From an uncultured Gemmatimonadales bacterium (lineage in GTDB: Bacteria; Gemmatimonadota; Gemmatimonadetes; Gemmatimonadales; GWC2-71-9): a stretch of 64,000 nt of DNA. Of this stretch, positions 57,775-63,820 are shown one piece after another. The notes under the pieces are model-generated. The model saw nothing but the letters and a program-made list of their open reading frames with translations, did not search any database and was not told the origin of the DNA. The stretch lies in assembly GCA_963695555.1 (NCBI GenBank), contig CAVOGR010000007.1, forward strand, positions 128,001 to 192,000, in the 5' to 3' direction. Positions within the stretch are counted from its first letter, which is position 1. Each line of letters begins with the position of its first letter. The position numbers and the translations under genes were made by a program.

Positions 57775-58362
57775 ATGCTACGAGTCCACTACATCCTGGG
57801 CGCCGCCTACCTGGCCCTCTGCATCATGCTGCTCCGGGCCACCGGCACGGCTCCTCGCCCGGAGTTCCTCCCGCACCCGACGGGCACGACCCAAATCGCC
57901 CCCGCAACCGGCGAGGCCGGCGCATGGTTCGCCAGCATGAAGCCATACTGCAACGCGGTCGAAGTGGAGACCCGGCAACGGGCCACGCCCCCGCCCGAGA
58001 CGCTGGAAGGATTGGGCTACAGCGCCGGCTGCTACGCGTTGGGCGGGAAGATCGACCTCGCGCGCGAAACGATCCGACGCGCCCCCGCTGATCAGCAGTA
58101 CAAGGCAGCCGGCATTGTGTTCGCTCTGGCGCATCCCGTGGCAGACGCCGGTGATGACAAGTCGGCCGGACCGATCATGGAGCTGGTCCTCGAGTTCTGG
58201 CCCAACCACTACCAGGCACGCTATCACGCCGGGATGTCGTCCTACATCCTCGGCGACGCCGGACGGGCCCGCCTGCATCTCACGCAGTTCGTCGACGAGT
58301 ACCGGCAGAACGATGGCTGGCGGCGGAATGCAGAGGCCGTGCTGCAACGCCTCGACAACTGA
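57775..58362 (+). CDS. Membrane-anchored/exported TPR-like protein
   Basis: N-terminal hydrophobic helix; helical repeats (WPNHYQARYHAG...A...L..F). Confidence 0.7.
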   Translation: MLRVHYILGAAYLALCIMLLRATGTAPRPEFLPHPTGTTQIAPATGEAGAWFASMKPYCNAVEVETRQRATPPPETLEGLGYSAGCYALGGKIDLARETIRRAPADQQYKAAGIVFALAHPVADAGDDKSAGPIMELVLEFWPNHYQARYHAGMSSYILGDAGRARLHLTQFVDEYRQNDGWRRNAEAVLQRLDN

Positions 58363-58366
58363 CGGC

Positions 58367-60223
58367 ATGGCTACTCCGGCGGCGTATCTCCCCATCGGGA
58401 CCGTGCTCACCGATCGCTATGAGATCCTGCGAGAGATCGGTCGCGGGGGGTACTCGGTCGTGTTCGCGGCCCGGGATCGCGATCTGGGTGCCGACGTCGC
58501 CATCAAACTTCTGGTGCCGCCTCCCGCGGTCGCCCACATCGCGCGGGAGCGCATGCGGCGCGAGGTCCAGGCCGTCCGGGCGCTGTCGCACCACCATATC
58601 GTCGCAGTCCACGATTTCGTGGAGGACGGCCCGCACAGCTTCATCGTCATGGAGCTGGTCGATGGATCCGATCTCGGCGTCCGCGTGGCGCAGCGCCAGC
58701 CACTCGGTCTCGACGAGGTCGCCCGAATCGGAGAGGAGGTGGCGGAGGCTTTGGCCTTCGCCCATGCACGCGGCGTCCTCCACCGCGACGTCAAACCGCA
58801 AAACATCTTGATCGACTCCGGGGGCCACGCTCGCCTCACCGACTTCGGCTCCGCCAAACTCGATGGCCAGATGACGGTGACGCAGACCGGCGGACTTGTC
58901 GGAACGATCCCGTACAGCGCTCCCGAGGTACTGAGCGGGCATCGCGGCGACGCCCGCGCTGACATCTACGCCCTCGGCCTGACACTGTTCTACGCCGTGA
59001 CCGGACGGCTGCCTGGAAGCCCAGGCTCTCGCCTCCCGCCACCCGCCACGCCGGGCGGACACCATCCCGGCGAGTGCCGTGACGGGGTCCCGAGCTGGCT
59101 GGATCAGATCATCGCGCGGGCAACGGAGGCGGAACCCGGCCTTCGATTCCCCGCCGCCTCCGATCTCCACGCAGCACTCAGAGCCCGCGCCGGAGACCAC
59201 GTTGCGCTTTCCGCGGCGGGACATCAGATGGTCGAGTTCTGCCTGAGCTGCGGCAGCAGTGACACGTTCGGGATGAGTCCCTGCCCGGAGTGCGGGGGCA
59301 CGAGACCGAAGAAGGCCGACACGTTAGTCTTCGTAGTCCCTCCCGCCAGGCGGAAGGATCGGCTCGCAGTTGCCCTCAATCTTGCGGGGTTATCCCCGCA
59401 CCCCGTCTCCCAAGTCGAACTCCGGCACGCCACCCGCGGACGCAGGGCCCTGGTGCGTATTCCGGCGCACCACGCGGCGTCCGTGATCAGGCACCTCACT
59501 GCCCGAGACATCCCGGTGCAAGCAGTCCCCAAGGCCCACGCCTGGGCGGCGGTTCCCCTCCCGCTCTACGCGCTGGCGGGCGCCATCGTCGTGGTCGGAA
59601 GCCTGGCGGGAATACTCGCATTGCCTGCAATGCTCTGGACCTCTCCGGTGGTCGCCGGGCTCCTGGTCATCGGAGGGCACCGAACCGCCCACACCCCGAT
59701 TCTTCACGCCGCTCAGAACGGCACCCGGACGCTCCCGCACGACCTCGCGTCCCGCGTGACTCGCACCATGGCGGTGCTCGGCCCCGGCACGACGCGCCGC
59801 ATGGTGGCGGACATTGTGACAGTGGGCCAGGCCGTCCTCGCCGATATTGCCGCGGCGGATGGACCGGGCGATCAGCGTGCCGATATCGTCGCGCTCCTTG
59901 CTGGCGTCAGCGACGTTGCCGATGACCTGGCAAATCTCGAACGGGCCCTGGCCACGCTCGAAACCCATCGCGATCGCTTTGCCGCCAACCCCGAGCGATG
60001 GCTCGACGCCTTGTCGCAATGCGAGCGTGCCCACGATCGCCAGGTACAGCAGCTGCTCGACGTGCTCTCGATCCTGGCTCGGCTCAAAGCCCAGGGAACG
60101 ATGTCCGACGCGACGGCGCAGGAGGAATTCGCCGAGCTGACCCGGCGGCTGGAACGAGACGCCGACGCACGGGCACTTGCGGAGGCGGAAATCGAGGAAC
60201 TGCTTGCACCGGACGATGCGTGA
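58367..60223 (+). CDS. Ser/Thr kinase with zinc ribbon, two TM helices and C-terminal coiled coil
   Basis: GRGG, VAIK, HRDVKPQN, DFG, APE; CLSC...CPEC. Confidence 0.9.
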   Translation: MATPAAYLPIGTVLTDRYEILREIGRGGYSVVFAARDRDLGADVAIKLLVPPPAVAHIARERMRREVQAVRALSHHHIVAVHDFVEDGPHSFIVMELVDGSDLGVRVAQRQPLGLDEVARIGEEVAEALAFAHARGVLHRDVKPQNILIDSGGHARLTDFGSAKLDGQMTVTQTGGLVGTIPYSAPEVLSGHRGDARADIYALGLTLFYAVTGRLPGSPGSRLPPPATPGGHHPGECRDGVPSWLDQIIARATEAEPGLRFPAASDLHAALRARAGDHVALSAAGHQMVEFCLSCGSSDTFGMSPCPECGGTRPKKADTLVFVVPPARRKDRLAVALNLAGLSPHPVSQVELRHATRGRRALVRIPAHHAASVIRHLTARDIPVQAVPKAHAWAAVPLPLYALAGAIVVVGSLAGILALPAMLWTSPVVAGLLVIGGHRTAHTPILHAAQNGTRTLPHDLASRVTRTMAVLGPGTTRRMVADIVTVGQAVLADIAAADGPGDQRADIVALLAGVSDVADDLANLERALATLETHRDRFAANPERWLDALSQCERAHDRQVQQLLDVLSILARLKAQGTMSDATAQEEFAELTRRLERDADARALAEAEIEELLAPDDA

Positions 60224-61110: not shown

Positions 61111-61142
61111 TTCATCCTCGGACCCACGAATCATGTCCGAAT

Positions 61143-61553
61143 CTATAGAGGGAATTCACGCCGCGCCGTGTTGCCGCGGGCGTCCTTGTAGCTCATGATA
61201 CCGCGCCGCATGCCGGCCTGGAACACGGCGACGATGCCCGACCCGCACGTGACTCGGGCAATCACGGATTCCTGGGAGCTGGTCGAGCGGCGGCGCAGCG
61301 CCTCCCGAACCGCCACCGCCCGGCACACTTCATCCGAGTCGGTATGGAAGCGAAGCTCGCACACGGTGGCTGCCGCGCCTGGCTGGCAGTCCACCCTGAG
61401 TCCCTGCTCGGGGATCTCCGCCAGACGTGTGGCGGGAATGCCCAGGCGCCTGAGGACATCGGGTGCGTCAGGGCCACCGGCCTGGCCAACCAGCGGCCGG
61501 GGTGTCCCCAGGGCGATACAGATGAGCGACAGCGCGACGGCCTTCAGGGCCAT
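61143..61553 (-). CDS. Small secreted Cys-containing hypothetical protein
   Basis: Signal-like MALKAVALSLICIALG; start uncertain. Confidence 0.5.
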   Translation of the reverse strand: MALKAVALSLICIALGTPRPLVGQAGGPDAPDVLRRLGIPATRLAEIPEQGLRVDCQPGAAATVCELRFHTDSDEVCRAVAVREALRRRSTSSQESVIARVTCGSGIVAVFQAGMRRGIMSYKDARGNTARREFPL

Positions 61554-61811
61554 CGAGCCTTGTTTTTGCCCGTTCGGTATGCAGAACATTGCACTCCTCC
61601 CTTCCAGGGCGGTCCTACACCATGGGGTAGGGGCAAGGGGCATACCGTGACCGCGATTACTTCGGGATATCTTCGGGGCTTCAGAGTGCGCCGGGCTCGG
61701 CCGGCAAGGGAGGTAGTGAAACGGGACCTTCTTCCCCATATTTGCAGTGCGCCGTCCGTTGGCGCACCGGTGTCCGTGCCCAATGTGTTCCCGAACCAAG
61801 GAGGTGATCCA

Positions 61812-61874
61812 TTGTCTAGTCCGTGTACCGTCTGCGTCCCGGCATGGGCAAGCGATCGCCGTCTCGGTAGCTAA
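61812..61874 (+). CDS. Candidate 20-aa small ORF MSSPCTVCVPAWASDRRLGS
   Basis: TTG start 7 nt after the GGAGG of AAGGAGGTGATCCA; strong hairpin downstream. Confidence 0.5.
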   Translation: MSSPCTVCVPAWASDRRLGS

Positions 61875-61940
61875 CGGGTAGCAATCGCGAATCTCCGCGA
61901 CGTTCGGTGCCGATCGGCATCGTGCCGGGTCGCAGAGGTG

Positions 61941-61978
61941 AAGAAGCGCCGTGGCCACTCGAGGCCACGGCGCTTCTT
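61941..61978 (+). terminator. Perfect 16-bp stem, putative intrinsic terminator
   Basis: AAGAAGCGCCGTGGCC-ACTCGA-GGCCACGGCGCTTCTT followed by GTGTT. Confidence 0.8.
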
Positions 61979-62128
61979 GTGTTGGCGGGCCGGCCTCGCG
62001 GGGGACTGGCGAAGGGCCAGAACCATGTTATTCCTTCATCCGCTCACGAACGATCATGCCGGCCACGTGGGAGCGGGGGCCGACGTCATACATCATCTCC
62101 CTACAATTCAGTGTGTCTTGGAGGCAGT

Positions 62129-62710
62129 ATGTTTTCGAAGTCGCTGCATGCCGTAGCGGCGGTAGGTGCCCTCGTGTTCATGGCAGGCTGCACCAATGAC
62201 CGAGTTCCGGCCGAGGCCGCCCTCCAGGCAGCCGAGCAGGCCGTGGCGGCGGTACGCCCCGAGGCCGAGCAATATGCTTCGGACGGCCTGAAGGCGGTAG
62301 ACGACGAGCTCGCGTTCATCAAGGAGAGCATGCAAGAGAAGAAGTACGGAGCCGCCATGAGCGCGGCCAAGGACTTGACCGACAAGGTCAAAGAGCTGGA
62401 GCAGGCGGTGACGGCCAAGAAAGACGAATTGTCCAAGGGTTGGGGCCCGCTTGCCGACAGCATTACCACCATGGTCGGTCAGCTGGAGACCCGGGTAGCC
62501 GAGCTATCTTCGTCTCGTCGCTTGCCGGCCGGGATGACCAAGAGTCAGGTGTCCGAGGCCAAGGCGTCCGTTCAACAGCTCAAGGATTCGTGGACCCAGG
62601 CCGCGGAGAGCTTCAAGGGCGGGAAGATTGCCGAGGCCATGACCGTGGCCGCGAGTGTCAAGTCGAAGGCGACGGAGTTAATGAAGATGCTCGGGTCGAC
62701 GGGCGCCTAA
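62129..62710 (+). CDS. Alpha-helical coiled-coil lipoprotein
   Basis: GGAGG SD; lipobox MAGC; two Ala/Lys-rich helical halves. Confidence 0.8.
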   Translation: MFSKSLHAVAAVGALVFMAGCTNDRVPAEAALQAAEQAVAAVRPEAEQYASDGLKAVDDELAFIKESMQEKKYGAAMSAAKDLTDKVKELEQAVTAKKDELSKGWGPLADSITTMVGQLETRVAELSSSRRLPAGMTKSQVSEAKASVQQLKDSWTQAAESFKGGKIAEAMTVAASVKSKATELMKMLGSTGA

Positions 62711-62777: not shown

Positions 62778-63062
62778 CTACCCCTGCCGCAGCAGCGCCA
62801 GCTTACGTGCGCGGGAGAGCCGCTTGATCTCCGCCTCGCGTTTGAGCGCCGCGGAACGGCTCGGGCTGTGTTCCCGAAATACCACCGAGACCGGGGTGCG
62901 GGCTCGGGTATACTTGGACGCGGTTCCGTCGCGGTGTGCCGCGAGCCGCTGGGCGACGTCCCGAGCGATCCCGGTGTACAGCGAACCGTCGCGGCACTCG
63001 AGCATGTAGACCCACCAGCCGTCGGCCTTGACCCTGCGGGTGGTCACCGGCTTCCGGATCAC
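62778..63062 (-). CDS. GIY-YIG nuclease (UPF0213 family); start GTG 63062 or 63047
   Basis: VYMLECRDGSLYTGI, R...H..G.ASKYTR, ALKRE..IK.LSR..K. Confidence 0.9.
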   Translation of the reverse strand: MIRKPVTTRRVKADGWWVYMLECRDGSLYTGIARDVAQRLAAHRDGTASKYTRARTPVSVVFREHSPSRSAALKREAEIKRLSRARKLALLRQG

Positions 63063-63820
63063 TCCGGCTGGGTGAGCGCCCGGACTTCCTCGGGCAACGC
63101 GAACACCGAGTCCGGCACTTCCCCGCTCTCCATACTGGTAAAGGTCATGATCTGCTCCATGCCCATGACCCGCTGCACCGTCTTGTGCGGCAGCAGTACC
63201 CCACCAACCGGCTGCCAATCCGACACGAGTGACGTGGCCTCCATATCGCCCATCGCGGTCGAGCGGGTGCGGACAGAGCCTACGAGAAGACCGGTCGTGC
63301 GATCGAAGAAGTCGAAATATTCCTCGCCATTCGCGGTGGTTACCTTCACGCGGTAACAGGGCGTGCCCTCGAACTCCTCCTCGCCGATGGTTTCGACCGC
63401 CGCGAAGAGCCGCTTGGGATAGAGCATGCTGTAGAAATCCGCGCTTTGCTGCATCTGCTGGAGGGACAACCCATCGAGAAGCATGGGTCCTTCCATCGGA
63501 TTGAGCGTCCACCCGACCGTTCCGTCAAAGCCATTCTTGACAGTTACCATCCCGGGGATCACGACCGTAACGGCCAGCTTGTTCGGTGCCTTCGCATAAA
63601 CCTCGAGATCTCCCTCGACGCCTTGGGCCGGCACCTCGAGGCGACCCGTCACATGGCGGCCGGTCTGGCGCATGACGGCCGCTTCGCCGCCAACGGCCTC
63701 GACGAAACGGCGGACGACGGCGGGCCCGTCTGGCAACGTTCCGCCCTGGGCTACACCCGTCGTGGGAAGCAGGGCAAGGAACAGGGCGCCGGGTACGAAC
63801 TGCATGCGAAGCTTCATCAT
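63059..63820 (-). CDS. Exported LolA-like fold protein
   Basis: AAGGAG SD; signal peptide; EAVGG, GFDGTVGW, FD..TGLL, GGVLLPH. Confidence 0.72.
   Translation of the reverse strand: MMKLRMQFVPGALFLALLPTTGVAQGGTLPDGPAVVRRFVEAVGGEAAVMRQTGRHVTGRLEVPAQGVEGDLEVYAKAPNKLAVTVVIPGMVTVKNGFDGTVGWTLNPMEGPMLLDGLSLQQMQQSADFYSMLYPKRLFAAVETIGEEEFEGTPCYRVKVTTANGEEYFDFFDRTTGLLVGSVRTRSTAMGDMEATSLVSDWQPVGGVLLPHKTVQRVMGMEQIMTFTSMESGEVPDSVFALPEEVRALTQPE

Follow-up and report, generated by a model that had tools for sequence, protein, structure and literature searches.

A probable rre-like small mRNA with an extended Shine-Dalgarno sequence in Gemmatimonadota

The window analysed here, a stretch of 64,000 nucleotides from an uncultured Gemmatimonadales bacterium (contig CAVOGR010000007.1), carries at 61747-61985 on the plus strand a small unit made up of a 5' hairpin, a 14-nt complement of the 16S rRNA tail, a TTG-started open reading frame (ORF) of 20 codons and a terminator with a 16-bp stem. 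The unit probably constitutes a gene of its own, encoding an 'rre-like' small mRNA of ~230 nt that would dock on the ribosome and adopt a two-state fold. It is conserved and single-copy, its extended Shine-Dalgarno (SD) sequence and TTG start codon are obligatory, the position of its stop codon is conserved and its long-range helix P1 covaries. The known example is rreB of Bradyrhizobiaceae, an mRNA of 165 nt in which 17 nt are complementary to the 16S 3' end and a GTG opens an ORF of 14 codons; it occurs mostly with 30S subunits and is weakly translated, and its counterpart in Rhodobacterales, rreR, has an ORF of 18 codons (Hahn et al., RNA Biol 2017, PMC5711450). An initial annotation of the window, made from its letters alone, had listed the hairpin, the 14-nt SD, the TTG-started ORF, the motifs TGCCCAATG and CATGGGCA and the terminator, and each was found where it had been placed; the palindrome TGCCGATCGGCA, which it had also mentioned, is present and lies at 61908-61919.

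The 3.57-Mb assembly is without a copy of the 16S 3' end, and the end was taken from two genomes of the same genus, where it reads ...GCGGCTGGATCACCTCCTTTCT (also given as ...CTGGATCACCTCCTTTCT). Because the 16S ends in this way, the contiguous Watson-Crick complementarity is exactly 14 nt, which bears out the earlier identification of the long SD as the reverse complement of the 16S 3' end, and the 14 pairs span nearly the whole single-stranded 16S tail. The complement stops at A61811, directly before the start codon TTG (61812-61814). When the genome and its relatives were searched for such sites outside rRNA, as had been suggested, the 13-mer AAGGAGGTGATCC was found once in the window and once in the assembly, and the motif proved to be conserved in the phylum (Gemmatimonadota, according to the titles of the public records carrying it). 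Across 78 phylum loci the contiguous complement is 10-16 nt long, with a mode of 13 and with 16 nt in only two. The start codon is TTG in 73 of these loci and GTG in five, in a search whose pattern admitted TTG and GTG only; no ATG start was present among the 150 rows listed from the phylum pattern search. The two spacer bases before TTG vary freely (CCA, CAA, CCC, CAC, CTC, CAT).

A BLAST search with the 538-nt gap between the flanking genes gave matches in 13 of 41 related genomes; outside the genus only the SD-plus-ORF segment was matched, and all of these loci read GGAGGTGATC-N-N-[TG]TG-TC[TC] followed by a short frame. In the same search, the region 61980-62128 was kept only within the genus. 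The pattern AGGAGGTGATCCATTGTCT, which covers 19 nt of SD and start with up to two mismatches, was found in 188 of 401 phylum genomes, nearly always in one copy, and a reversed control gave one match. By family, the matches were 85/166 (f1), 31/93 (f2), 23/30 (f6), 45/70 (f7) and 1/13 (f10). Pattern searches of this kind are seeded on the SD, and a covariance model (R1) was therefore built that leaves out the SD, beginning at the start codon and ending with the P1 3' strand. Of 151 genomes, 53 had exactly one match each, and several of the 53 were absent from the pattern search results. Thirty of the R1 loci were returned for reading upstream, the thirtieth being out of register; the 29 readable ones, including genomes missed by the pattern, all carry AGGAGGTG[A/G]TC, then 1-2 nt, then TTG, and for this reason the extended SD and the TTG are regarded as obligatory parts of the unit; the same result indicates that the complementarity to 16S rRNA is under selection. 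A scan of 185,579 species genomes for GGAGGTGATCCNKTGTCT returned at least 120 loci; among the matches listed, record titles assigned 18 to Gemmatimonadota, ~93 to Alphaproteobacteria or 'Proteobacteria' and nine to others, four of the nine sitting in ordinary long genes.

At least three forms of the unit exist in the phylum. Subtype A, to which the genome of the window (G000) belongs, has 19-21 codons and the residues ...[W/R]A[S/N]DR...; subtype B has 14 codons and is MSTDPRTARIAGSR-like; subtype C has 11 codons, reads MSTESRVACG[RCH] and is confined to one genus. All three finish with a GC-rich terminator hairpin. A stem of at least 10 bp located 72-160 nt 3' of the SD was picked by script in 29 of 29 phylum loci, the pick in L013 (at 72 nt) being probably an internal hairpin, and the length of the unit across the phylum is ~120-240 nt. 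Upstream, the motif TTGnnn-N16-19-TAnnnT occurs in 43 of 77 phylum loci against a mean of 2.0 and a maximum of 7 in shuffles, with the -10 element mostly ending 32-37 nt 5' of GGAGG. The predicted fold of 61747-61982 has an energy of -118.8 kcal/mol compared with -93.9 +/- 4.8 for 200 shuffles (z = -5.2). Judged by sequence comparison, the unit is a conserved, single-copy, stand-alone and small structured transcription unit across genera, in keeping with the small structured transcript of the initial annotation.

Compensatory changes support helix P1 (61827-61844 / 61923-61939), which was examined on 38 distinct type-A sequences and also on 16 sequences. The types of its core pairs were GC 17/AU 13/GU 4, CG 27/UA 10, AU 21/GC 8 and GC 25/AU 7/UA 1. 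Its covariation score of 0.253 was reached by none of 500 shuffles (0.151 +/- 0.009), and slid registers scored 0.06-0.09. The 5' strand of P1 coincides with codons 6-11 of the ORF, and the amino acids encoded there are not conserved. Further along the frame the conserved residues 'WASDR' correspond to the invariant RNA block GGGCAAGCGATCGCC, and the changes seen in them obey RNA pairing, for example GAT to GGT (Asp to Gly), by which an A-U pair becomes G-U; Ser is also replaced by Asn, Thr or Gly, and Arg by Leu.

These data bear on whether the unit is simply an ordinary gene for a functional 20-residue peptide, such as a Cys-x-x-Cys metal or redox peptide, in which a very strong ribosome-binding site (RBS) serves the production of the effector. 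The frame is open in every member, its first stop lies at codon 19-21 in all 22 distinct type-A sequences (TAA 8, TGA 10, TAG 4), the peptides are alike within subtypes (..[WR]A[SN]DR.. among type-A sequences, MSTESRVACG[RCH] within a single genus), and conserved small proteins are favoured by the authors of the rre study. The peptides nevertheless differ completely between subtypes, at 19-21, 14 and 11 codons with no more than Met-Ser in common, and two Cys residues in a CxxC arrangement are present in only 3 of 38 type-A sequences, as a genus-level trait. The conserved residues overlie RNA helices and their changes track pairing rather than amino-acid similarity, codons 6-11 covary with a strand downstream, ATG is avoided among the rows listed, and synthetic RreB and RreR are unstructured (PMC5711450). 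A peptide effector is accordingly considered very unlikely, and the 'CxxC micropeptide' of the initial annotation is not supported; of the two things it had proposed to compare, RNA structure is kept and peptide sequence is not.

The converse possibility is a purely non-coding riboregulator that would act in trans, through binding of its 5' tail to the 3' end of 16S rRNA or to anti-SD-like small RNAs (sRNAs), and in which the frame is incidental. Constraints at the RNA level would account for the sequence conservation, Rfam classes the alphaproteobacterial relative as an sRNA, and stop-free stretches of 20 codons are frequent in G+C-rich DNA. Against this, a TTG or GTG stands at a fixed distance in every member with variable spacer bases beside it, and the type-A stop keeps its position amid variable sequence with all three stop codons used, the stops of frame +1 ranging widely from 3 to 61. 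In addition, rreB is weakly translated and is stabilised when a stop replaces its start codon, so that its turnover is start-codon-dependent (PMC5711450). A role without translation is thus judged unlikely. From the patterns of start, stop and substitution, selection is read as acting on a weak but real initiation and a fixed termination point and not on the peptide sequence; it would be the docking and the act of translating that matter.

The second structural element is the invariant block at 61845-61864 (UGGGCAAGCGAUCGCCGUCU), which can pair with 61799-61818, that is, with the 3' part of the SD, the start codon and codon 2. The pairing consists of AGG/UCU, GGUGAUC/GAUCGCC and UUGUCUA/UGGGCAA. 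Of the 11 positions of GAUCGCCGUCU in the block, 3 are unlike the 16S tail GAUCACCUCCU. Positions 61853-61861 of the same block also form the 5' strand of a second downstream helix, P2, so that a closed fold, with the block on the SD, competes with an open one containing P1 and P2. In the genome of the window the closed helix is predicted at -117.2 kcal/mol and the open structure, the minimum free energy (MFE) fold, at -118.8, a difference of only 1.6 that makes the two nearly equal in energy, and nascent RNAs with their 3' ends at 61875, 61900 or 61922 are predicted to take the closed form. The 14 core pairs of the closed helix are paired in 31-38 of 38 sequences, and 89% of cells are paired compared with 37-54% in slid registers. 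The variable spacer bases 61810-61811 lie in an internal loop of this helix, which fits their freedom. The closed helix is a prediction, one that would explain the invariance of both the block and UUGUCU.

Stretches resembling the 16S tail were also present within other frames, namely GGAUCGCC in type B, GGGUCGCC in type C, GGGAUCGCC and UGUCACCUCG in rreB and CUGGAUC...GCCUCC in RNAs of the Caulobacter CC2171 type, and their recurrence at fixed positions in separate lineages is suggestive. A pairing between TGCCCAATG in the leader (61777-61785) and CATGGGCA (61843-61850), raised in the initial annotation, is neither supported nor rejected because both motifs are invariant (GCCC/GGGC paired in 37-38 of 38), and the start codon region UUGUCU is a competing partner for GGGCAA. 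A masking of the start 'CATTG' by a leader 'CAATG', as in the centroid fold of the genome of the window, was considered and is not supported, as clades with a changed spacer (CAA, CAC, CTC, CCC) had no matching change in the leader when compared by eye.

Under the rre-like reading, the 5' part of the RNA would form a duplex of 14 bp with almost all of the single-stranded 16S 3' tail and so dock on the 30S subunit, and the weak TTG together with the GC-rich P1, which begins 16 nt into the 20-codon frame, would hold translation low. The RNA may be bistable, with the block at 61845-61864 acting as a degenerate copy of the 16S tail. In the closed form this block would cover the start codon and the SD's 3' part; in the open form it would pair with the downstream strand to give P2, stacked on P1, and the ribosome site would be freed. 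Binding of 30S at an exposed AAGGA seed and passage of the ribosome may then flip or melt the helices, and remodelling of this kind would couple the fate of the RNA to ribosome availability. For docking and restrained initiation at TTG the basis is the published analogue, and for the bistable fold it is structure prediction and the patterns of conservation; we infer that the rre properties would hold for the Gemmatimonadota unit and that it may contain a switch. The initial annotation had also offered an RNA that sequesters 30S subunits. The binding itself has been found experimentally for the analogue rreB; sequestration as a function is not supported, rreB having had no effect on growth when overproduced (PMC5711450).

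Contigs assembled from metatranscriptomes of four estuary runs, 90-99% alike to the window, cover the unit (X2, 61813-61997; X4, 61731-61925; X3, 61323-61957; X1, 61126-62164) and offer weak evidence of its transcription. The related strains behind these contigs differ by a 14-nt insertion after 61999 and small indels (62111-62117) just 5' of the lipoprotein start, and no listed differences in the SD, the start codon or the block.

Several points weigh against the rre-like, two-state reading. The contigs are assemblies of related strains that attest to presence in RNA libraries, not to ends, strand or level, and they may include DNA. A consensus promoter scan of 61300-62400 found no sigma-70-like site, and the TTGnnn...TAnnnT motif was not found in the genus of the window's genome (including L005) or in several clades. 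The complementarity of 14 nt here, and 10-16 nt in the phylum, is shorter than the 16-17 nt given as a hallmark by the rre authors, and since overproduction of rreB has no phenotype a 'sensor' role is unproven (PMC5711450). For the closed helix, six core changes are disruptive as against 13 that are wobble-compatible. Among the 38 sequences, the MFE structure is the closed one in 10, and the closed fold comes within 3 kcal/mol of the MFE in 16 (median difference over all 38, 3.25), being more than 3 kcal/mol worse in the other 22. Covariation is no test of this helix, as its SD strand is fixed by the 16S rRNA, and the slid-register control is inflated because the structure was derived from one of the sequences counted. 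Duplex energies of SD against ORF gave z of -1 to -3 relative to mononucleotide shuffles and are singly not significant.

The unit lies in a gap (61590-62128) between a gene on the minus strand for a 148-aa product (start ATG, 61589-61587) and a lipoprotein-like gene on the plus strand whose start is at 62129; neither product has a Pfam match. As the upstream gene is on the minus strand, the flanking genes are divergent, which corrects the setting given in the initial annotation. That annotation had also considered the unit to be a 5' leader or transcription attenuator controlling the lipoprotein gene, which is on the same strand 150 nt downstream; a short ORF followed by a terminator has the look of a leader-peptide attenuator, and contig X1 spans both the unit and the lipoprotein gene. 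X1 spans the minus-strand upstream gene as well and so does not prove one transcript. The lipoprotein neighbour is common only to the genome of the window and one genome of the same genus (L003), and is gone in L005 and in all other genera; 18 of 39 loci have instead a divergent Kdo-transferase gene (waaA-like, PF04413) upstream of the unit, and most of these 18 have a CPBP/Rce1-like membrane-protease gene (PF02517) downstream. Moreover, a strong terminator, a perfect 16-bp stem, precedes the lipoprotein gene, and the folds showed no alternative antiterminator in which this stem takes part. Because the gene context differs in this way between genomes, the reading as a leader or attenuator is rejected as extremely improbable.

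The features of the unit are collected in Table 1. The genus of the window's genome has the 5' hairpin in place of the TTGnnn...TAnnnT motif; the hairpin is identical in L003, L005 has another sequence there, and other clades have different hairpins at the equivalent place before GGTGTCCCGCCC, so that it is regarded as clade-specific. The 20-codon frame is embedded in a longer listed ORF (61344..61874).

Table 1. Features of the unit and its surroundings in the window
Feature	Position	Strand	Remarks
Candidate promoter TAGTGA/GTGAAA ... CATATT/ATATTT	61714..61743	+	Picked by eye; weak, putative
5' hairpin GTGCGCC-GTCCGTT-GGCGCAC	61747..61767	+	Arms 61747-61753 / 61761-61767; probably the RNA 5' end
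Leader with invariant GCCC (61778-61781)	61768..61797	+	GCCC (near-)invariant in 38 type-A sequences
Extended Shine-Dalgarno AAGGAGGTGATCCA	61798..61811	+	14-nt perfect complement of the 16S 3' tail
TTG-started 20-codon ORF MSSPCTVCVPAWASDRRLGS	61812..61874	+	TTG 61812-61814, stop TAA 61872-61874
P1 5' strand, ORF codons 6-11	61827..61844	+	Pairs with 61923-61939; many compensatory changes in the core
Invariant block TGGGCAAGCGATCGCCGTCT, read as a putative anti-RBS	61845..61864	+	G.U-tolerant complement of 61799-61818; encodes 'WASDR'
Variable central hairpins	61865..61914	+	Length and sequence differ between genera; most of palindrome TGCCGATCGGCA inside
P2 3' strand CGGCATCG	61915..61922	+	Pairs with 61853-61861, C61857 bulged
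P1 3' strand TGCCGGGTCGCAGAGGT	61923..61939	+	Pairs with the P1 5' strand (fold and covariation)
Terminator, perfect 16-bp stem, loop ACTCGA, tail TTGTGTT	61941..61985	+	Arms 61941-61956 / 61963-61978

Relative to the Kdo-transferase loci, the unit has moved to another neighbourhood in the genus of the window's genome. Other genes near it in the window encode a 702-aa Ser/Thr protein kinase (PF00069) with a long C-terminal extension (58115-60223, +), a HAD-family hydrolase (PF13419; 60323-61057, +) and a 244-aa protein with a GIY-YIG domain (PF01541) at its C-terminus (62778-63512, -).

Units of similar design were found beyond the phylum. In an order that includes a metagenome-assembled genome (MAG) titled Planctomycetaceae, the pattern AGGAGGTGATCCAGTG... 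(up to two mismatches over 19 nt) is present in 54 of 121 genomes against two matches for a control. In ten loci of this order the frame, M[ST]..DC..GL.R, is 10-22 codons long, and the script called a terminator in eight of the ten. Their leader contains GACGGCUGG, which resembles GCGGCUGGAUC of 16S rRNA and is predicted to pair with UCCAGUG, and the leader GACGGCTGG is predicted to pair with the 3' end of the SD and the GTG (L195-L210; genomes G414-G535). In a further order (L129/L194, L211-L218; genomes G415, G536-G555), 13 of 21 genomes carry units of the form AGGAGGTGATCC-N-[GA]TG-TCT, four of them starting with ATG, unlike those of Gemmatimonadota. Separately, contigs binned as Hydrogenophaga (Betaproteobacteria) and as a MAG of the Parcubacteria group (L132, L137) bear rre frames of alphaproteobacterial type (MSHCH..., MSHCLSPQ...TW...), which points to mis-binned contigs or to transfer.

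Few bacterial transcripts are known to pair with virtually all of the anti-SD tail, and the rre and CC2171 RNAs belong to them. The present data show that the design is no alphaproteobacterial oddity: it is found as a single-copy, obligatory-SD unit in about a third to a half of the sampled Gemmatimonadota genomes, and at least one further lineage of phylum rank has it too. Both points favour a basic role linked to the ribosome. Independent lineages also allow constrained features (the length of the SD, the weak start codon, the stop position, the internal mimic of the 16S tail and the covarying closing helix) to be separated from free ones (the peptide). A broader proposal, tentative and on balance doubtful, is that rre-like RNAs form an ancient or repeatedly transferred class in Alphaproteobacteria, Gemmatimonadota, the order with the Planctomycetaceae-titled MAG and the one further order, with a near-full complement of the 16S tail and a degenerate copy of that tail in cis, serving as a decoy against which the real 30S subunit would have to compete, as shared features. 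Such an RNA would sense how concentrated the free, initiation-competent 30S subunits are; translating the mini-frame would reset the switch and set off decay, and the peptides would be by-products.

The hallmarks given for rre RNAs are a complement of at least 16 nt that runs into a GTG start, and an ORF of 14-25 codons, kept within a lineage, on a ~165-nt transcript with its own promoter and terminator (PMC5711450). In the genome of the window the complement is 14 nt long and is followed by TTG after A61811, and so falls short of the first hallmark on both counts; the ORF of 20 codons, the terminator in 29 of 29 loci and the promoter motif in 43 of 77 loci, though not in this genus, agree with the remaining hallmarks. 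The excerpts of that paper report rre analogues only for Caulobacterales, Rhizobiales, Rhodobacterales and Rhodospirillales, and call the function of rreB 'elusive'; in the literature searched, subscription journals being outside its coverage, no report of rre-like RNAs outside Alphaproteobacteria was found. Like rreB and rreR, the unit is a small transcript that stands by itself and has a terminator of its own; its SD extends over nearly the whole free 16S tail, its start is not ATG, and its ORF is tiny (20 codons, or 11-21 across the phylum, as against 14 in rreB and 18 in rreR). It likewise has an internal hairpin predicted to mask part of the SD and to leave a 5' seed, it is single-copy, and its context is not conserved between lineages; as in rreB (GGGATCGCC, TGTCACCTCG), a stretch resembling the 16S tail lies in the frame (GATCGCC). 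Unlike them, it belongs to another phylum, has a complement of 14 nt rather than 16-17 nt and uses TTG rather than GTG, and its complement ends before the start codon where theirs includes the first base of it. Its peptide is unrelated and its fold is different, with a long-range P1/P2 helix, backed by covariation, that would compete with the masking helix.

The initial annotation had named a match to a known Rfam family as evidence against its reading; a match was found only below threshold, to RF01867 (CC2171, a Caulobacter sRNA), at 61793-61973 with 23.7 bits and E = 0.0082 against a gathering score of 75. RF01867 was the only sRNA family matched in 15 of 15 phylum loci (20.8-43.1 bits). 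True members used as controls scored 120.2, 96.7 and 91.1 bits, and the published rreB and rreR scored 41.7 and 37.3; as these scores share a range with those of the phylum loci, the distance of the Gemmatimonadota elements from CC2171 is about that of rreB and rreR. At permissive thresholds Rfam gave no other sub-threshold match of this kind, the weak matches to ar7, Scr3202, Ms1 and others being driven by the terminator. The ar7 match (RF02342, an alphaproteobacterial sRNA) is on the minus strand at 61940-62040, with 29.3 bits compared with the 60 needed and E ~0.001; it consists of the terminator stem read from the opposite strand and a GGCC...GUCCCCCGC...GGCC hairpin, and it is sub-threshold and driven by the shared stem. 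CC2171 RNA has been validated by Northern blot in Methylorubrum (bioRxiv 10.1101/2022.01.24.477521). With CC2171 the unit shares the 5' motif AAGGAGGUGAUCCA-KUG-UCU and a helix that closes early ORF codons onto a segment just before the terminator; it differs in its score below the threshold and in a closing helix that begins at codon 6 rather than codon 3, and Rfam calls CC2171 non-coding.

The arrangement of strands also recalls leader switches that sequester an RBS, in that there is an RBS, a masking block and a third strand competing for the block. Translational riboswitches and attenuators in mRNA leaders are built from SD, anti-SD and anti-anti-SD arrangements of this type. The Gemmatimonadota unit differs from them in having no ligand domain and no downstream gene to control, and in a masking block that resembles the 16S tail and lies inside its own frame. 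The kind of element is thus a known one, that of rre and CC2171, whose lineage, subtype and fold are new here, and the unit is a variant of this kind rather than a member of the CC2171 family.

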